Origin: Escherichia phage EC_OE_11
DNA: 64,000 bases
Strand: one strand, 5' to 3'
Sequence record: OQ108497.1
Shown: piece after piece, positions 5,227 to 61,930 of the stretch
Position numbering within the stretch: position 1 is the stretch's first letter
Layout of the letters: each line of letters begins with the position of its first letter
Made by a program: the position numbers and the translations under genes
Notes under the pieces: model-generated
Database searches by the model: none
Told to the model about the DNA's origin: nothing
Seen by the model: the letters and a program-made list of their open reading frames with translations, nothing else

Positions 5227-5790
5227 TTAAATAATTTTATTCATGTCTTGACAATGTAAAAGGTGTGAAACAGCTTTCCTAGGATCATCACTACCTAAAC
5301 GGTATGTGTGAAATAAATATAACCCACGTAATAAACCTAGCCTTTTGTTGTTAGCATGTAATGCTTTAGAGAAAATTATATCAAATTGTATTGACCTTTC
5401 CTCAAAAGGGATTTCATTCCACAGGCTCTTACGAAAGAGAAGAAAGAATCCTGCTAAGATAGCATCTGTAGGTACTTCCTCTATTGAGTTTCCCCATTCT
5501 AGATGTGCTCTTTTTGCAATTTCAATGTGGTGTAATATATTTGGATCTTCACTTCTTTCATTATTAAATAATTGATATGTTGATCCCAGTCTATTACAAG
5601 ATGCACCAAGAACATCAAAATCAGGATTTGAACGGACTATTGATTCCAACCAAGCAGGTTGTTCTGGAAGAAGAAACATTGTATCAATGTCTCTTAGGCA
5701 AATCCAACTATCTTCTGGTAAGACACTTATTGTGTCATTGATACCTTTTCCAATATCTCCAGAAAGATAGGGAGTTATGTGAAATATCAT
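5227..5790 (-). CDS. hypothetical protein (possibly glycosyltransferase-associated)
   Basis: 187-aa ORF in glycosyltransferase cluster. Confidence 0.45.
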   Translation of the reverse strand: MIFHITPYLSGDIGKGINDTISVLPEDSWICLRDIDTMFLLPEQPAWLESIVRSNPDFDVLGASCNRLGSTYQLFNNERSEDPNILHHIEIAKRAHLEWGNSIEEVPTDAILAGFFLLFRKSLWNEIPFEERSIQFDIIFSKALHANNKRLGLLRGLYLFHTYRLGSDDPRKAVSHLLHCQDMNKII

Positions 5791-5847
5791 ACTCCCTCCG
5801 TATTATTACTTTAGCATTTTTAGACTAAAAAGTCCAAATGGTTTTAC

Positions 5848-17530: not shown

Positions 17531-17550
17531 AAGGAGGCTTTCGCCTCCTT
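17531..17550 (-). terminator. intrinsic terminator (bidirectional-looking)
   Basis: aAGGAGGC-tttc-GCCTCCTt with T-rich flanks on both strands, downstream of AAA+ ATPase gene. Confidence 0.55.
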
Positions 17551-17557
17551 TTATCAC

Positions 17558-18718
17558 TTAGTAAGAACGACCACCAAACACATACTCTGTGTAGTTTTTA
17601 CGTTCTTTGTTTTTAATAACAACTTCAATGTTGTTACCTTTATCATCGGTGAACATAAAGTGATAACCGTCACCACCCATTGTACGGATGTGTTTTTCAT
17701 CATACGTTAGCAAGATACGGTCTACACCCCAGTAGTAGTCACCTTCTTCATCTTTATCTTCTACGGTAACGATCCCTTCCATTTCAGGAAGATGCTCTTC
17801 ACCTAGTTTATGGTCTACAGCTACAACATAACGATTACCACTAAACAAACCTTGTGCTGTCATACCGTCAATATCGGTATCTGCCGAAACATCTCCTGTA
17901 CGATCTACACCGTTAACTTTCAGAAGTTTAACCTCTTTTGCAGCATAGCGGTGTTCAGTAATACTGATACCCATTAGTGCAAGTGCATCAGAGAATTTGT
18001 CATTAGGGTAACGGTTAAGTTCTTCTACTAATGACTGAACAATATCAAAGTTCAAATCCACGGAGAGATTATAAAGCGTTTCAAAGTCTGGTAAGAAGGC
18101 TTTGTTCTCCAGATTTTTAGCCAGATAATCATCCATAGTAGCTTTAGGTAGTTTCTTATAGCTAAAACTGTAGAAAATACGGCTAGGACGATTACGCAAA
18201 AATTCTGATACATAACCATCATTTTTAGTCAATACAAACAGTTTGTCGTAGCCACCAACACCATCCAGCAGGGTAAGCAAACCATCTTGTGCATCTTTTT
18301 CAGCATACAGTTTATCAAATTCATCGATCATAATCATTACAGGTTGTGTGATTTTAGACATAAAATTGATAAAGCCTTCACCATTAAAAGCACTGCCGAT
18401 AGAAATAGTAGGAATACCCATTTCACGAAGAGCAGAAGACAGCATTTTAGCTTGCAAAGTTTTACCGCTACCTTTCGTACCTTCAAGGAGAACACCTGTG
18501 TTTTTACCTTTGCGGCTAAGGAACGTTTTGATAATACGTTCTGATTTATCATCAGTATCACCGTATGTTACTGAAGGGACTTCCATATCGTTTTTAGGAT
18601 ACAGGAAGAACTCACCACTTTGAGTAACACCTACACCAAAAGTTCCTGCTGGAATTTCTTCAATATCTGTACCAGATTTCTGACGCAGGAAGATTTGATT
18701 GCCGAATACTGTAAACAT
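17558..18718 (-). CDS. AAA+ ATPase (paralog 1)
   Basis: Walker A GTKGSGKT, Walker B MIMIDEFDK, sensor-1 FVLTKN; paralog of 32445..33572. Confidence 0.7.
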   Translation of the reverse strand: MFTVFGNQIFLRQKSGTDIEEIPAGTFGVGVTQSGEFFLYPKNDMEVPSVTYGDTDDKSERIIKTFLSRKGKNTGVLLEGTKGSGKTLQAKMLSSALREMGIPTISIGSAFNGEGFINFMSKITQPVMIMIDEFDKLYAEKDAQDGLLTLLDGVGGYDKLFVLTKNDGYVSEFLRNRPSRIFYSFSYKKLPKATMDDYLAKNLENKAFLPDFETLYNLSVDLNFDIVQSLVEELNRYPNDKFSDALALMGISITEHRYAAKEVKLLKVNGVDRTGDVSADTDIDGMTAQGLFSGNRYVVAVDHKLGEEHLPEMEGIVTVEDKDEEGDYYWGVDRILLTYDEKHIRTMGGDGYHFMFTDDKGNNIEVVIKNKERKNYTEYVFGGRSY

Positions 18719-28532: not shown

Positions 28533-28799
28533 CTAATTACTGTTAGATCTGTACTCTGTCTTCCATTCACAATGGTAAACTTCAACAGGTTCTAACTTCC
28601 AGTGTTCAGGAACTAGTTCAGGACAATATCTACAAAAGAGAAATAGATAGATAACTAAGACAGGTATTAAATAGTAAAATGGTATACGATCATAACCATA
28701 CTTACGAGATAACATGTAGACATATAGATAGGGTATAACAATTAATCCTATAACTATAAGTAAGAAGAGAAGTATAAACCTTAGTGTAGTAACATCCAT
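28533..28799 (-). CDS. small membrane protein
   Basis: 88 aa, two TM helices. Confidence 0.5.
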   Translation of the reverse strand: MDVTTLRFILLFLLIVIGLIVIPYLYVYMLSRKYGYDRIPFYYLIPVLVIYLFLFCRYCPELVPEHWKLEPVEVYHCEWKTEYRSNSN

Positions 28800-28878
28800 A
28801 GTATTCTCCTATACAGTAATATACTCTGTTCCTGCCCCTCCATGAGTGACAGGAACAATATCTATAGAGAATACTAAC

Positions 28879-28935
28879 TCGCTTCGCTCGTCACCTTTCA
28901 GGTTTAGGGTAGCATGTTTTTCTGAAAAAGTCAAT
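28879..28935. repeat. intergenic conserved element, copy 1 (core TTAGGGTAGCATGTTTTT)
   Basis: 18-mer at 28904-28921 identical to 56766-56783; shared upstream TCGCT..CGCTCG. Confidence 0.55.
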
Positions 28936-28963
28936 ACTCTCCACAAAACTTTACAAAATACTT

Positions 28964-29236
28964 TTACATAGGTACAACAGAGTCTGTTTTGAAGTCGTAC
29001 ATATGATTTACACCTGTGATTTTTGACATAGAGATTGCACGTTTAACACCTGCAATTACCTGGTCTGTCTTCTTAATCTCTTCACGGAACTTACGCACAG
29101 TTAGAGAGAAGAAACGATGATCCATCCATTGACGATTCACACGATCACGCTTGAAGTGACGGAAATCTTCAATCTGTTTATTGCGCAATCGGCGCAGTAC
29201 ATGCAATAATTTATAGTAAGGGTGTTTATTTTTCAT
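28964..29236 (-). CDS. hypothetical protein (basic)
   Basis: 90-aa ORF. Confidence 0.5.
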   Translation of the reverse strand: MKNKHPYYKLLHVLRRLRNKQIEDFRHFKRDRVNRQWMDHRFFSLTVRKFREEIKKTDQVIAGVKRAISMSKITGVNHMYDFKTDSVVPM

Positions 29237-33585: not shown

Positions 33586-33610
33586 TAAAAACCCGCTTCG
33601 GCGGGTTTTC
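33586..33610 (+). terminator. intrinsic terminator
   Basis: AAACCCGC-ttcg-GCGGGTTTTCTTGTAT; identical copy at 60338-60361. Confidence 0.8.
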
Positions 33611-33646
33611 TTGTATTGATGCCAGATTTAATAAAAGGAGTAGTAG

Positions 33647-35371: not shown

Positions 35372-35585
35372 TATTTTGAAAATTTTTACTTTTATAAAAA
35401 GGGGTGTGGGTTTCATGTACGGAAATCCACCCTCTGAATAATATATCCAGAGTAAATATTATTCTGTACTCTGTTAATAAAGTATTTAATTTGTTTGTTG
35501 GACTATGGTATCTGATCTTTAAAAGGCATACTATCTCTTAACTACTATTTATAACAGAACAGTAAAATCATTTTTATAAAAAGGA

Positions 35586-35790
35586 CAAAATTATTTAAAG
35601 TTTTTACAGATTTTTGGATACAAATTTTGAAAATGAAAAGTTCAAGTTTGGTCAAAATTATTTAAAGTTTTTGTACGTATTTCTATCCAGATTTTGAAAA
35701 TGAAAACTTCAATTTTTTAAAAATTCCCCAGTTTATTTAAAGTTTTTTTGCCTTTTTCCGTAGAAAAATCAAAAATGAAAAGTTCAATTT
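35586..35790. repeat. 3 tandem copies of about 67-bp AT-rich unit
   Basis: Each unit has AAAATTATTTAAAGTTTTT and ATTTTGAAAATGAAAAGTTCAA. Confidence 0.7.
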
Positions 35791-35811
35791 CGTGTTTTTA
35801 TAGGTGTGCGT

Positions 35812-35925
35812 ATGATAATCATTCTCATTTGTAAATGAGAATCATTATCATTTAATTATGTAAGTGATAATCATTCTCAGTAAGAGAATGAGAATCATTA
35901 GCAAATGAGAATTTTTCTCATTTAG
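35812..35925. promoter_or_regulatory. cluster of Fur-box-like motifs (GATAATCATTCTCATT / AATGAGAATCATTATC)
   Basis: At least 5 units in both orientations resembling Fur consensus GATAATGATAATCATTATC. Confidence 0.5.
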
Positions 35926-35929
35926 AGAA

Positions 35930-36480
35930 TAACGCGCAGGGGTGGTGTTTGTCTCGCGCTCCCGTGTCCCTCGCCATACAATAAGAATAGCATAACCAAC
36001 AACAAAAGCAAGCGATTATTTTTATCTTTACATTTCTTTACAAATTTATTTTAGACGAGCTACCGGCGATCAACCTTCCAACCAGTGCCCCTGGTATGTT
36101 AGCCCCGCCTTTACGCCGTGGGGGTGGCGCTTCCTCTTCTGTATGTAAAACAGTATAAGCCCGATCCCTGGGCTTGTCAAGATTATTTTTTGTTTTCTTG
36201 CCAGGAAAGGACACCTAACCAAAAATACATATCGCCCCGCGCCCCTGGCGGGATCTTGCTTTCCCCGCCGCCACTGCAAGCCCATAAATAACCATCAGCG
36301 AACGGATCAAAATGTTCTATCTCTTCCACCTTATGATCGCCCAGGTTGAGAACGGTTTCAACCTTTAAGCCCGTTGCGCTTGCTACCTGGTGCACCGTGC
36401 CGCCTTGCCAGCCCAATGAGTGCATGAGATGTAAAGGAGTATTTGTCATGGTATCGCCCTTTCTTTGATGTGCGCCCTGG
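35930..36480. other. GC-rich compositional island inside AT-rich non-coding hub
   Basis: Visibly GC-rich versus flanks; only weak ORFs. Confidence 0.5.
36183..36449 (-). CDS. hypothetical protein (88 aa) within GC-rich island; possibly acquired
   Basis: ATG 36449 with AAAGGGCG SD-like; atypical codon composition. Confidence 0.3.
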   Translation of the reverse strand: MTNTPLHLMHSLGWQGGTVHQVASATGLKVETVLNLGDHKVEEIEHFDPFADGYLWACSGGGESKIPPGARGDMYFWLGVLSWQENKK

Positions 36481-36819: not shown

Positions 36820-36878
36820 TTGACAACGTTTTTTAATCTGATAAGATGTATCACATAGGGCGGCAATAGTGCCGCTCA
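36820..36878 (+). promoter_or_regulatory. promoter + 5'-leader stem-loop cassette (PeSL-like, type B)
   Basis: TTGACA-16nt-TAAGAT then GCGGC-aatagt-GCCGC hairpin, SD, ATG 36900. Confidence 0.55.
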
Positions 36879-36899
36879 TAACAGAAGAGAGAAATAATC

Positions 36900-37175: not shown

Positions 37176-37235
37176 TTGACACTGAAAAATAATTTAGTAA
37201 TATATACCACATAGGGCGGGAAATGGTTTCCCGCC
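37176..37235 (+). promoter_or_regulatory. promoter + stem-loop cassette (type A: GGGCGGGaaatggtttCCCGCC)
   Basis: TTGACA-16nt-TAATAT then 22-nt hairpin. Confidence 0.6.
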
Positions 37236-37257
37236 AAATCAAAGAAAGGGTAACACA

Positions 37258-37620
37258 ATGAGCAAGCAAATCAATACTATCATGTTAAACCTGGTATCTT
37301 TCCGCGATGACGTGAAAAATCTTTCGCGTGATGCAGTGGATGCACGGATCGAAAGCTATCGCACACAGATCGCGACATTACCGTTAAAACGTGATCAACA
37401 TGCCGCTAATATGATGCTTGATGCTATGATTAAAAAGATGATTCAATGTGATCTTACCCTGGCTTATGAATATGCTGGCGATCTTTTTGTAACGTATAAT
37501 AAACCCGTTCCAGGTATGAGCACCACGGAAGAATTGCATGCCTTAAATCTGCGACAAGATGCATGGGATAACATGCGCCGTGTTATGGTATGGGTAGAAA
37601 GCGGTAAAATTTACGAATAA
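37258..37620 (+). CDS. hypothetical protein
   Basis: 120 aa. Confidence 0.55.
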   Translation: MSKQINTIMLNLVSFRDDVKNLSRDAVDARIESYRTQIATLPLKRDQHAANMMLDAMIKKMIQCDLTLAYEYAGDLFVTYNKPVPGMSTTEELHALNLRQDAWDNMRRVMVWVESGKIYE

Positions 37621-39788: not shown

Positions 39789-39848
39789 TTGACAACGTTT
39801 TTTAATCTGGTATAGTTTATCGCATAGGGCGGGAAATGGTTTCCCGCC
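39789..39848 (+). promoter_or_regulatory. promoter + stem-loop cassette (type A)
   Basis: TTGACA-16nt-TATAGT then GGGCGGGaaatggtttCCCGCC. Confidence 0.6.
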
Positions 39849-39870
39849 AAATCAAAGAAAGGTTATCATT

Positions 39871-40098
39871 ATGGCTATCGTTATTGTTCGCGTATCCGGC
39901 ACGGTTGGAATCTCCCAGGTAGTAGCAGTTATCACCGAGAAGAAAGGGGATGATCTTCACTCCTCATTGAATAGCTGGGCGGTCGCTAACTTTGGGCAAT
40001 GGTCGAGCGTTGAGTACATCGAATCCTACCAGGTGCCAACGATTAGCCTGACCGATCTCAACGTTGATCGTCTGTTATGCCTGGATCAATTAAACTAA
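39871..40098 (+). CDS. hypothetical protein
   Basis: 75 aa. Confidence 0.55.
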   Translation: MAIVIVRVSGTVGISQVVAVITEKKGDDLHSSLNSWAVANFGQWSSVEYIESYQVPTISLTDLNVDRLLCLDQLN

Positions 40099-40106
40099 AA
40101 ATAATA

Positions 40107-40164
40107 TTGACAAGACAACTAAAATTAGTAAAATGTAATTCATAGGGCGGCAATAGTGCCGCCC
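40107..40164 (+). promoter_or_regulatory. promoter + stem-loop cassette (type B)
   Basis: TTGACA-16nt-TAAAAT then GGGCGGC-aatagt-GCCGCCC. Confidence 0.6.
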
Positions 40165-40185
40165 CTAGTAAGAGAGATTATCAAA

Positions 40186-42975: not shown

Positions 42976-43037
42976 TTGACAGCACACCTGATAAGTAATA
43001 TATTGTATCTCATAGAGCGGGGAAATGGTTTCCCCGC
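42976..43037 (+). promoter_or_regulatory. promoter + stem-loop cassette (type A variant)
   Basis: TTGACA, TAATAT-like -10, AGCGGGGaaatggtttCCCCGCC. Confidence 0.55.
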
Positions 43038-43057
43038 CTTAACAGAAGAGATAAGAT

Positions 43058-43343: not shown

Positions 43344-43404
43344 TTGACACTAGGCAAACAACGTAGTAAAGTTTATCACATAGGGCGGGAAATGGTTTCC
43401 CGCT
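43344..43404 (+). promoter_or_regulatory. promoter + stem-loop cassette (type A)
   Basis: TTGACA then GGGCGGGaaatggtttCCCGCT. Confidence 0.55.
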
Positions 43405-43426
43405 CACAGTAGAAGAGAAACAAATC

Positions 43427-43597
43427 ATGATCCCAACTATGTTTTATGTATCGCGCAAAGGTCACAATATTTTTTGGTCTGAAGATTTAAATGAAGCCAT
43501 GACGTTTGCCCGTGATCGTGTTGCTATTGGTGGCGTTAATATCACTGTAACCGATGAAAATGGCATTGAATACTATAACGGCGACGATGAAGAGTAA
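43427..43597 (+). CDS. small hypothetical protein (56 aa), not in ORF track
   Basis: ATG 43427 downstream of cassette. Confidence 0.45.
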   Translation: MIPTMFYVSRKGHNIFWSEDLNEAMTFARDRVAIGGVNITVTDENGIEYYNGDDEE

Positions 43598-43916: not shown

Positions 43917-43972
43917 TTGACAACAATTATAAATCGGGTAGAATGTATTTCGTAGGGCGGCAATAGTGCCGC
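43917..43972 (+). promoter_or_regulatory. promoter + stem-loop cassette (type B)
   Basis: TTGACA-16nt-TAGAAT then GGGCGGCaatagtGCCGC. Confidence 0.6.
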
Positions 43973-43995
43973 TCACAACTAAAAGAGAAATCATC

Positions 43996-44991: not shown

Positions 44992-45050
44992 TTGACACCG
45001 ATCCCCAATATGGTATGATTTACCACGTAGGCGGGAAATGGTTTCCCGCC
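44992..45050 (+). promoter_or_regulatory. promoter + stem-loop cassette (type A)
   Basis: TTGACA-16nt-TGGTATGAT (extended -10) then GGCGGGaaatggtttCCCGCC. Confidence 0.6.
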
Positions 45051-45073
45051 AGGTAATCAAAAAGGTAAATACT

Positions 45074-46554: not shown

Positions 46555-46572
46555 AAATGATAATCATTCTTA
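46555..46572. promoter_or_regulatory. Fur-box-like motif AAATGATAATCATTCTTA
   Basis: Matches GATAATGATAATCATTATC-type consensus. Confidence 0.45.
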
Positions 46573-46610
46573 TTTATAGCTGATTATTTATGCAATAAAC
46601 TGCATAATGC

Positions 46611-46630
46611 AATAATGATAATCATTCTTA
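46611..46630. promoter_or_regulatory. Fur-box-like motif AATAATGATAATCATTCTTA
   Basis: Second copy about 55 bp downstream. Confidence 0.45.
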
Positions 46631-47511: not shown

Positions 47512-47529
47512 AAATGATAATCATTATCA
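47512..47529. promoter_or_regulatory. Fur-box-like motif AAATGATAATCATTATCA
   Basis: Near-consensus Fur-box-like palindrome. Confidence 0.45.
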
Positions 47530-47694: not shown

Positions 47695-47730
47695 GAATGA
47701 TAATGCAAATGATAATAATTCTCATTGATA
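47695..47730. promoter_or_regulatory. tandem Fur-box-like motifs
   Basis: GAATGATAATGCAAATGATAATAATTCTCATTGA. Confidence 0.45.
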
Positions 47731-56647: not shown

Positions 56648-56742
56648 GAGTAGTAAGTAAGATATAAAGAGTATATAGTTAGCTATAGAGTTAGTAACAT
56701 TACATATACTCTTTCCATGTATAACATGGAATATTCTCTACC

Positions 56743-56800
56743 TCGCTATCGCTCGGTATATAAGATTAGGGTAGCATGTTTTTTACGAAAAGTAAAACTG
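56743..56800. repeat. intergenic conserved element, copy 2 (core TTAGGGTAGCATGTTTTT)
   Basis: 18-mer at 56766-56783 identical to 28904-28921. Confidence 0.55.
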
Positions 56801-56854: not shown

Positions 56855-57073
56855 GTGTACAAATTATATAAAGCAAAAGATAAGTTTACGGGCAATACAT
56901 CTGGTTTCTATGTAACACCCCGTGGTGTTGCTGTGTTTGATTGGATCTCTGGTACTCCAGATCGTGAAATGATCTCTCTTGTAAAACTGTCAGAACAAGA
57001 TTATACTTACGGTGACATTACAACGTTCTATTCTCGTGCAGAAAATCCAAAACTGATTGCGGAGTGGGAATAA
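56855..57073 (+). CDS. hypothetical protein (GTG start)
   Basis: GAGGAG SD 7 nt upstream of GTG at 56855. Confidence 0.45.
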   Translation: MYKLYKAKDKFTGNTSGFYVTPRGVAVFDWISGTPDREMISLVKLSEQDYTYGDITTFYSRAENPKLIAEWE

Positions 57074-60337: not shown

Positions 60338-60361
60338 TAAACCCGCTTCGGCGGGTTTTCT
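60338..60361 (+). terminator. intrinsic terminator (duplicate of 33586-33610)
   Basis: AAACCCGC-ttcg-GCGGGTTTTCTTGTAT. Confidence 0.8.
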
Positions 60362-60418
60362 TGTATATATGCTCTTTATATGTTATAAACACTTTTAGCA
60401 TAAACAATAGGAGGTATT

Positions 60419-61090: not shown

Positions 61091-61109
61091 AAAGGGGCTT
61101 TCGCCCCCT
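61091..61109 (-). terminator. intrinsic terminator downstream of Sir2-like gene
   Basis: aaGGGGC-tttc-GCCCCc then TTTTCTTA on minus strand; sequence family shared with 132-150. Confidence 0.6.
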
Positions 61110-61117
61110 TGGTTAAG

Positions 61118-61930
61118 TTATTTAGTCAAATGATCTTCTATCATTTTTATGAAAGCAGGATTGCTAAAAGCATCTGCGGCCTTTTCTCGATAAACAAAGA
61201 CTCCTCTATCTTCGTAAAGAAGAGTTTCTTCGTAATTAATTCCTGGGTTAACAACGATCATTTTTGTACCCATATTAAGTGCAGGGAATAATTCCCAATT
61301 AAAATTGATAACTTGGTTTGAACATCCTACTACTACAACCAAATCTTGCATGGTCAAAGTATCAAACAAGTGAGCCATATCTGCATACAAAGGTGCAGCC
61401 TCACCAAAAAATACAACATTAGGCTTCACCCAGTTGTAATCATCTATGTTTATACTGTTGTAACCAATATCTACCAGTGTTTTGTAATCCCCAGGATGCA
61501 TACGGTAAACTATTTCAGGAAGATATCCGTGCACGTGAATAACCGAATCTCTGTCTACACCTGCTCGCTCTAGTAGATCATCGACGTTTGTTGTCAAGTT
61601 TACTACTTGGTTAGGATATTCCTTAAACCACTTTGCTATTTGAATATGTGCAGCATTAGGTTGTACATCTTTAAGCTCAACACGTCTTTTGTTATAAAAT
61701 TCGTGTGTTTTGGCATACAAATCCATACCGTTCTCGTCTACACCACCAACCACGGGAAGATCTGGAGATGTTCTAACACGATAACCTGCTTGGAAAGCTC
61801 CAATATCGCAGACCTCTTCTAAATCATATTCTTCCCATAAGGCACGACCACTATCGGTGTCTGTTCGGAATGTTCGAATCCCACTGTCTGCACTTAAACC
61901 TGCGCCACTGACAAAAATTACTCTTCGCAT
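61118..61930 (-). CDS. Sir2-family protein (sirtuin-like NAD-dependent deacylase or ADP-ribosyltransferase)
   Basis: VIFVSGAGLSADSGIRTFR, PNAAHIQIA, TTNVDDLLERAG...HVHG, VVFFGE, VVVGCSNQV; no obvious Zn-binding CxxC pairs. Confidence 0.75.
   Translation of the reverse strand: MRRVIFVSGAGLSADSGIRTFRTDTDSGRALWEEYDLEEVCDIGAFQAGYRVRTSPDLPVVGGVDENGMDLYAKTHEFYNKRRVELKDVQPNAAHIQIAKWFKEYPNQVVNLTTNVDDLLERAGVDRDSVIHVHGYLPEIVYRMHPGDYKTLVDIGYNSINIDDYNWVKPNVVFFGEAAPLYADMAHLFDTLTMQDLVVVVGCSNQVINFNWELFPALNMGTKMIVVNPGINYEETLLYEDRGVFVYREKAADAFSNPAFIKMIEDHLTK

Follow-up and report, generated by a model that had tools for sequence, protein, structure and literature searches.

Why should a phage genome carry the same 18 nucleotides twice, in non-coding DNA and some 28 kb apart? 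The question comes from a preliminary description of a window of 64,000 nucleotides of Escherichia phage EC_OE_11 (OQ108497.1; "the window" is this whole stretch), which had noticed TTAGGGTAGCATGTTTTT in two intergenic gaps together with a similar segment upstream of each copy, had placed both before a small gene, and had offered a shared promoter, a small-RNA element or a recombination hotspot as possible explanations. The two observations of sequence are sound. The 18-mer occurs exactly at 28904-28921 and at 56766-56783 (sites A and B), on the + strand at both; there is no third match in the window even when three mismatches are allowed, and at least two matches turned up in 0 of 100 dinucleotide shuffles. 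Without gaps, the similarity extends over 31 nt at 84% identity (28904-28934 against 56766-56796). The neighbouring segment is a box that reads CTCGCT(T/AT)CGCTCG on the + strand at both sites (CTCGCTTCGCTCG at 28878-28890 for A, CTCGCTATCGCTCG at 56742-56755 for B), and its other-strand form, CGAGCG-N(0-2)-AGCGA, is found at only these two places in the window, against 0.00 expected by chance. Box and 18-mer are separated by 13 nt at A and 10 nt at B, and the distance ranges over 10-16 nt between copies.

The sequence around both sites agrees at 97-99% with that of dozens of Escherichia phages in the genus Justusliebigvirus, and judged by its sequence the window is that of a phi92-like phage (Justusliebigvirus, subfamily Stephanstirmvirinae). 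A greedy map of open reading frames, combined with the annotation of phi92, gives leftward genes from about 31.7 kb down to position 1 and rightward genes from about 32 kb to 60.6 kb, after which the genes run leftward again; the rightward run crosses the genome terminus near 47 kb. Every open reading frame that flanks the two sites could be assigned to a phage protein family. Site A is flanked by two genes of the minus strand, at 28533-28799 and 28964-29236, which are homologues of phi92 gp208 and gp209; the neighbours of site B are gp023 and gp024 on the + strand, with gp024 starting at 56855. The two copies have the same orientation in the DNA and are therefore opposite relative to local transcription. 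The idea that each stands before a small gene holds for the + strand at site B, where the gene is gp024, but fails at site A, between its minus-strand genes.

A promoter-like module on the minus strand

The reverse complement of site A reads TTGACT, 17 nt, TGC, TACCCT, AA, 13 nt and CGAGCGAAGCGAG, and that of site B reads TTTACT, 17 nt, TGC, TACCCT, AA, 10 nt and CGAGCGATAGCGAG. Both copies have the TTGACA-like -35, the 16-18 bp spacing and the TG at -15/-14 of a sigma-70 extended -10 promoter; the exception is a poor -10 hexamer, which agrees with TATAAT at three of six positions (T1, A2 and T6 are kept, and the middle is CCC). In our opinion the best-supported reading of these sites is a host sigma-70 extended -10 promoter, with a predicted start. 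The shared promoter that had been suggested is thus retained, but on the opposite strand and with another target, copy A facing gp208; nothing assigns it to the middle or late type that had been given as an example. The features of the two sites, all on the minus strand, are the following.

28929..28934, minus strand: -35 hexamer TTGACT of copy A, matching TTGAC-N15-TGNTACCCTAA
28912..28928, minus strand: 17-nt spacer of copy A, with the extended -10 TGC at its end (28912-28914)
28904..28911, minus strand: -10 hexamer TACCCT of copy A (28906-28911), followed by AA (28904-28905)
28898..28899, minus strand: predicted transcription start of copy A, 7-8 nt past the -10, placed by sigma-70 geometry only
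28875..28893, minus strand: predicted hairpin of copy A, UGA-C-GA-GC-[GAA]-GC-GA-G-UUA (box 28878-28890); outer stem covaries, core invariant
28800..28874, minus strand: remainder of the leader of about 100 nt after copy A, with a strong predicted fold
28533..28799, minus strand: homologue of gp208, an 88-aa hydrophobic protein (PHROG 18381), first gene after copy A
56791..56796, minus strand: -35 hexamer TTTACT of copy B
56774..56790, minus strand: 17-nt spacer of copy B, with TGC at its end (56774-56776)
56766..56773, minus strand: -10 hexamer TACCCT of copy B (56768-56773), followed by AA
56739..56758, minus strand: hairpin of copy B as in the ViennaRNA minimum-energy fold, UAC-C-GA-GC-[GAUA]-GC-GA-G-GUA (box 56742-56755)
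56668..56731, minus strand: two predicted hairpins after copy B, 56713-56731 and 56668-56712, then UUUAUAUCUU; fold z = -2.81

The pattern TTGAC-N15-TGNTACCCTAA is shared by copy A and by copies in phi92, alia, phAPEC8, KP13-16, Tr1 and phiWec181. In an alignment of 13 copies from several genera, TT-AC, TG and TACCCTA are invariant, the spacer measures 17 nt in 11 copies and 18 nt in the remaining two, and the base after TG is C or G, as TGn predicts. The -35 hexamer of copy B is TTTACT in three lineages and TTGACT in Phapecoctavirus; in Justusliebigvirus it agrees with the consensus at only four of six positions, and TTTACW-N17 is the early-promoter consensus of T4/PST (PMC4122927). Neither site was listed by a consensus promoter and terminator scan, because TACCCT falls below its 4-of-6 rule.

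That such a phage relies on host sigma-70 promoters is clear from the early block, where about 25 sites with a perfect TTGACA, 16-17 nt and TAnnnT precede small genes. For the related phage rV5, 33 promoters of the sigma-70 type have been predicted, 11 of them with an extended -10 (PMC3606486). The module resembles extended -10 promoters at large in its TTGACA-type -35, its 17-nt spacer, its TGn and the A2 and T6 of its -10, but differs from them in that TACCCT and the next base are invariant instead of drifting around TATAAT, in that it is always coupled to one hairpin, and in that there are three copies per genome, one of them antisense. The frozen TACCCTA may mean that the promoter is weak or conditional, or that these bases are recognised together with the hairpin described below. 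The literature that we searched yielded no transcription study or 5'-end data on Stephanstirmvirinae and no mention of the motif, whose strings match only unrelated primer sequences there.

Further copies do exist, and the module is conserved in related phages. The whole genome of J. alia has three copies, phi92 has the same three, and the sister genus Phapecoctavirus, represented by 536P1, has three with syntenic spacing. The third copy (copy C) lies 39.6 kb beyond copy B in alia, hence outside the window, and reads TTGACA-17-TGC-TACCCT-AA..CGAGCGCAGCGAG; that of 536P1 has an 18-nt spacer and TACCCTAG. Both alia and 536P1 contain three boxes, each adjoining a promoter, with none elsewhere in about 148 kb each. 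The module is also present in Klebsiella and Citrobacter relatives and in several metagenomic contigs. A covariance model of the whole module, built from the 13 copies, gives the two sites 78.6 and 70.5 bits, against 17.5 bits for the next best place in the window, and it recovered 28 more copies among metagenome loci. Three stretches are the same in all 34 distinct sequences, namely ATG-n-TACCCTA, CGAGCG and the GC that makes up the two-base 3' arm of the inner stem; the closing GCGAG reads GCGAT in a single metagenomic copy. Across 55 records the 76-nt module shows 100% identity and its flanks 97-99%, and in another genus the module can be aligned at 82%. BLAST found no such element outside Stephanstirmvirinae, and a search of E. 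coli complete genomes for a host counterpart gave no match. The repeat is under selection. The recombination hotspot that had been proposed finds no evidence here, the three copies being syntenic across genera.

A few other matches belong beside these. The sole other covariance-model match in the window, at 5782-5842 (minus strand, 17.5 bits), is a promoter of like spacer style, TTGGAC..AAAAATGC-TAAAGT, directly upstream of a gene starting at 5790, with an ordinary -10 and without the box. A loose pattern search of IMG/VR and a scan of metagenomes were discarded as such, their matches being mostly due to chance, and the true copies were extracted by the covariance model. The pattern CGCTCG-N10-TTAGGGTAGCAT also matches, over a span of 28 nt, one coding sequence that is strongly conserved in large bacterial contigs from the human gut; this is a chance, unrelated match.

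A hairpin at the predicted 5' end

On the minus strand the box reads CGAGC-(GAA/GATA)-GCGAG and begins 12-16 nt past the -10 hexamer. When its arms, CGAGC and GCGAG, are paired, they form two G-C pairs, a tandem G.A/A.G and a closing C-G, within a hairpin of 19-22 nt; a C-GA-G tandem is a classic stable sheared G.A motif. Variation of the box is confined to its centre (GAA, GATA, GCA, GAAT, GGGA) and affects length as well as sequence, which fits a loop and fits two fixed half-sites poorly. Outside the box, the flanks of the different copies are complementary although they differ from one copy to another: UGA/UUA, UAC/GUA, UUA/UAG, UAA/UUA, UUC/GGG and GUG/UAU. Over the 34 distinct sequences, pairing is found in 89% of the cells of this outer stem, and sliding the 3' partner lowers the figure to 31-49%; covariation was also seen in a hand-made test on 13 sequences. 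Closest to the box, the flank pair is C-G 24 times and A-U nine times, the next-but-one position shows U.G, U-A, C-G and G.U, and the middle pair is a G.G mismatch in about half of the 34. Since 28 cells hold G.U pairs, where the other strand would hold A.C mismatches, the hairpin belongs only to the strand of the predicted transcript.

Covariation scores 0.280 in the real sequences and 0.128 +/- 0.021 in shuffles, of which 0 of 500 came up to the real value, a count that overstates the support because structure, alignment and test share related sequences (the hairpin was picked from the sequences on which it was tested, and the alignment of 42 sequences was fitted to it). We therefore regard the hairpin statistics as supportive, not decisive. 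When B-type transcripts of five phages were given to RNAalifold with no structure supplied, the box hairpin was the sole structure returned, and for copies B and C the minimum-energy fold of ViennaRNA includes it, in the form ((((..((....))..)))) for B. Rfam 15 gave no match in the whole window at gathering thresholds, and around copy A a search at an E-value threshold produced chance-level matches only.

Several other structures or readings were considered and dropped. Pairing of the -10 region with the sequence that follows the box is present in some copies only. A small hairpin between the -10 and the box of A-type copies is mostly a conserved CC..AAGG without compensatory change, and its 5' arm would fall upstream of the start. 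A boxA-like reading of CGCTCG lies on the wrong strand relative to the promoter and is inconsistent between the sites.

Genes and predicted RNAs downstream of the three copies

In every genome examined, copies of types A and C have a co-oriented ribosome-binding site and an ATG downstream. After copy A of the window, these are the AGGAG at 28806-28810 and the ATG at 28797-28799 of gp208, and the gene that follows the Klebsiella and Citrobacter copies has the N-terminus MD(V/T/I)..RF in common with gp208. The leader in between has a predicted fold of -36.4 kcal/mol (z = -4.18), equalled by 0 of 200 shuffles, which comprises a hairpin TGTTCCTG..CAGGAACA at 28827-28857 and in which the segment UAGUAUUCUCUAUAG, just past the 5' hairpin, would pair with the Shine-Dalgarno region of gp208. 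This anti-Shine-Dalgarno pairing was not seen in the copy of the Klebsiella phages, whose leader has instead a 21-bp hairpin and then UUUUCUUUU between the 5' hairpin and the gene.

Copy C lies in the divergent gap between gp106A and gp107 and faces gp107 and gp108, annotated as PRPP synthetase and nicotinamide phosphoribosyltransferase. It is followed by about 110 nt, an AT-rich and partly palindromic tract and then a second, sigma-70-like promoter of the form TTGACT-17-TA..T, some 40 nt before gp107, so that two tandem promoters would stand ahead of these NAD-salvage genes. As the second is nearer to gp107, copy C may not be the main promoter of this gene. A terminator scan found no sense-strand terminator downstream of copy C.

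Copy B is of another kind, for it is directed away from gp024, opposes gp023 and is antisense to the genes of the early block, a placement kept in Justusliebigvirus, Phapecoctavirus and one Klebsiella-type contig. There is no minus-strand open reading frame of at least 20 aa after copy B in the window; a 64-aa antisense frame after copy B of phAPEC8 was rejected, as it is absent from phiWec181 and from the window, and of the two overlapping frames only the sense gene is conserved. The two hairpins after copy B and the U-rich stretch that follows them come before the gp023 stop codon (56647), and the first, 56713-56731, scores on the + strand as terminator-like for gp023. Copy B probably makes a short non-coding RNA, with a candidate length of about 100-120 nt. 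The small-RNA element proposed in the preliminary description is thus probably right for copy B. Such an RNA would recall lambda OOP and P22 sar, for copy B is a promoter that converges on the 3' end of a gene, lacks an open reading frame and has hairpins about 50-110 nt downstream; unlike OOP and sar, the predicted copy B RNA shares its promoter and 5' hairpin with two mRNA leaders. Its 3' end is suggested only by the hairpins with their U-rich tail, and the convergent arrangement is kept in three genera. The promoter scan showed no evident + strand promoter for gp024; gp024-gp027 are therefore probably expressed by read-through, against which copy B would act.

Short open reading frames of 41-45 aa overlap the module itself (28809-28946 on the minus strand and 28846-28971 on the + strand at site A), and a "hypothetical protein" is annotated over it in database records that include phAPEC8_0059, VivaForever and PD114. 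We doubt that these are genes, because the spacing within the module differs by 1-4 nt between copies; probably they are not.

The window contains other repeats as well. Small early genes are preceded by cassettes in which a near-perfect TTGACA, 16-17 nt, TAnnAT promoter is followed after about 10 nt by a GC hairpin, GGGCGGGAAATGGTTTCCCGCC or GGGCGGCAATAGTGCCGC, and further on by a ribosome-binding site, an arrangement that is like the PeSLs discussed below except that the stem-loop is downstream of the promoter. At least eight copies of AATGATAATCATT(C/A)TCA occur in two non-coding regions, one of which adjoins the genome terminus; over 16 consecutive bases the copy at 47513-47529 agrees with the Fur-box consensus of E. 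coli, GATAATGATAATCATTATC, and these repeats could be iron-responsive sites or a decoy for Fur. Lastly, near-identical terminator-like hairpins, AAACCCGCTTCGGCGGGTTTTCTTG and AAAGGGGCTTTCGCCCCTT, are reused at distant gene ends.

36820-36882, 37190-37260, 39789-39873, 40107-40169: early cassettes
43020-43051, 43359-43429, 43917-43979, 44992-45054: early cassettes
35811-35903, 46556-46630, 47513-47529, 47708-47724: AATGATAATCATT(C/A)TCA repeats
33589-33622 and 60339-60372; 132-163, 17531-17562 and 61091-61122: AAACCCGCTTCGGCGGGTTTTCTTG/AAAGGGGCTTTCGCCCCTT terminator-like hairpins

What the module may do

The geometry of -35, TGn and -10, a hairpin confined to one strand and the direction in which copies A and C point together lead us to read the repeats as leftward promoters with a conserved 5' hairpin. 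We go one step further and think, with moderate confidence, that the module is a leftward sigma-70 promoter cassette whose 5' hairpin serves as a recognition tag on three transcripts. The host sigma-70 polymerase would read the good -35, the 17-nt spacer, the TG of the extended -10 and the invariant TACCCT with its AA, and the transcript would start about 7 nt past the -10; its first 25 nt would fold into C-GA-GC, a G(N)NA loop and GC-GA-G, extended by three variable pairs. As the inner G.A stem is frozen while the outer stem covaries, a pattern typical of specific binding sites, we infer that this hairpin is a tag, recognised by a trans-acting factor, most likely a phage RNA-binding protein, and that it additionally shields the 5' end. 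No candidate for the factor emerged among the neighbouring genes, none of which has an established function. The tagged transcript of copy A would be an mRNA starting with gp208, that of copy C a long leader ahead of the genes for PRPP synthetase and NAMPT, and that of copy B a short non-coding RNA against early genes, aimed at the terminator region of gp023, which could counteract transcription running on into gp024-gp027, or else titrate the factor that reads the tag.

A more ambitious version, which we advance only tentatively, makes the G.A hairpin the tag of a new regulatory circuit of phi92-like phages, in which the factor would act on exactly three transcripts, two mRNA leaders and one antisense or decoy RNA near the end of the early operon, and perhaps also read the TACCCTAA core. 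Such a factor might switch expression by antitermination, by stabilisation or by titration.

The invariance of the -10 region and of the box would also fit a DNA-binding protein, and it goes far beyond what plain sigma-70 needs. One may thus imagine an operator in duplex DNA, where a protein bound at about +8 to +25 represses or times the three promoters, TGCTACCCTAA belongs to the same interface and the RNA is irrelevant. The box can indeed be read as two direct AGCGA repeats, its place just past the start is the typical one for a repressor, and phi92 annotates putative transcription regulators, gp026 and gp027, close to copy B. We nevertheless consider this rather unlikely: the distance between the half-boxes shifts by 1 bp (the loop having 3 or 4 nt) and that to the -10 by 4 nt, which fixed protein-DNA contacts tolerate poorly, and flanks that covary as pairs and use G.U would be meaningless in duplex DNA. 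Moreover, the neighbouring proteins have no Pfam DNA-binding domain.

If the hairpin works as RNA, its factor might be an antiterminator that loads on the nascent transcript, as lambda N does at nutL and nutR, and allows read-through of the hairpins or terminators downstream. The likeness to nut sites lies in the layout: immediately after the promoter, the nascent RNA would have a small conserved hairpin whose loop is of the G..A type, and this is found at a few specific promoters in a handful of copies per genome, here at three places. Both the 21-bp hairpin with UUUUCUUUU of the Klebsiella phages and the hairpins with a U-rich tail after copy B would give an antiterminator something to act upon, yet terminator-like hairpins follow the tag only in some lineages: copy A of the window has no U-tract after its hairpin, and the scan downstream of copy C was empty on the sense strand. 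There is no CGCUCUUA-like boxA on the sense strand, the tandem G.A stem and the 3-4-nt loops are unlike known boxB hairpins, and the phage, unlike lambda, is a virulent one outside the lambdoid group. The analysis identified no protein resembling N or Q, and no N-like protein is known in Stephanstirmvirinae. A loading site of this sort is in our view unlikely.

Could the module be simply a generic cassette of promoter and stem-loop, duplicated and homogenised by recombination, in which the hairpin does nothing more than stabilise the 5' end? The early block is full of TTGACA, 16-17 nt, TAnnAT promoters with a GC hairpin about 10 nt later, and flanks or loops are shared within one genome (GGGGAGATTCT comes after copies A and C alike in Klebsiella-type phages, and in Phapecoctavirus copies A and B both have the GATA loop), which suggests exchange between copies. 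This idea would perhaps also make the module a recombination site as has been proposed for the PeSLs (promoter-early stem-loops) of T4-like phages. PeSLs are repeated intergenic elements in which a sigma-70-like promoter (TTGACA or TTTACW, N17) is joined to a stem-loop; they show conservation both inside single genomes and among related phages, and occur in many copies in hyperplastic regions, where they are linked to insertions and deletions (PMC2839356, PMC4122927). According to the legend of Fig. 3 in PMC4122927, the stem-loop lies just upstream of the promoter and is the terminator of the preceding gene.

The module is PeSL-like in combining a conserved promoter with a stem-loop. It differs from the arrangement of that legend in that its hairpin, with an invariant core, lies 12-16 nt downstream of the -10, in the transcript. 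Instead of many copies bordering insertions and deletions, we see three copies, syntenic in both genera, with no insertions or deletions associated; and a Shine-Dalgarno sequence and start codon come after copy A but not after copy B, which has no gene at all. As for a mere stabiliser, the 5' stem-loops of the ompA type are similarly found about 2-9 nt from the (here predicted) 5' end, but they need no fixed sequence, whereas the core of the module is invariant and contains non-canonical pairs. The hairpins of the early cassettes vary from copy to copy and the core of the box is frozen across genera, and for this reason we favour a tag over a stabiliser and find the generic cassette quite unlikely.

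The preliminary description had implied a promoter or signal on the + strand before a small gene at both sites. It is true that gp024 starts 72 nt downstream of site B and that a 41-aa + strand frame overlaps site A, but the latter site lies between two minus-strand genes of real phage families, coding is ruled out by the 1-4 nt differences in spacing between copies and orthologues, and neither site has a + strand -35/-10 pair with fixed spacing, because the distance between box and 18-mer varies among the copies; we hold this to be very improbable. Least probable of all is a replication signal, be it a transcription-primed (R-loop) origin of the type of T4 ori(uvsY) and ori(34) or a hairpin for single-strand initiation on the displaced strand, for although the box of copy A contains GCGAAGC, the sequence of a very stable DNA mini-hairpin, and very AT-rich tracts lie downstream of C-type copies, the AT tract is directly upstream of the second TTGACT promoter and looks like its UP element, the sign of the GC skew flips only at the turns of transcription (near 31 kb and near 60.7 kb) and at neither 18-mer site, and there is a better origin candidate at 35570-35790 (three tandem AT-rich repeats of 70-79 nt). 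These last repeats are iteron-like and sit in a 698-nt gap free of open reading frames, 35372-36069.

We thus return to the leftward promoter with a hairpin tag, and to what it would mean for these phages. The annotation of their genomes could be corrected, in that the "hypothetical proteins" placed over the module are probably not genes. A non-coding RNA that opposes the early operon is predicted. More generally, the module may provide a handle on regulation in this group, with a class of promoters that has an unusual, invariant -10 and with an RNA hairpin of 19-22 nt that could be used as bait.
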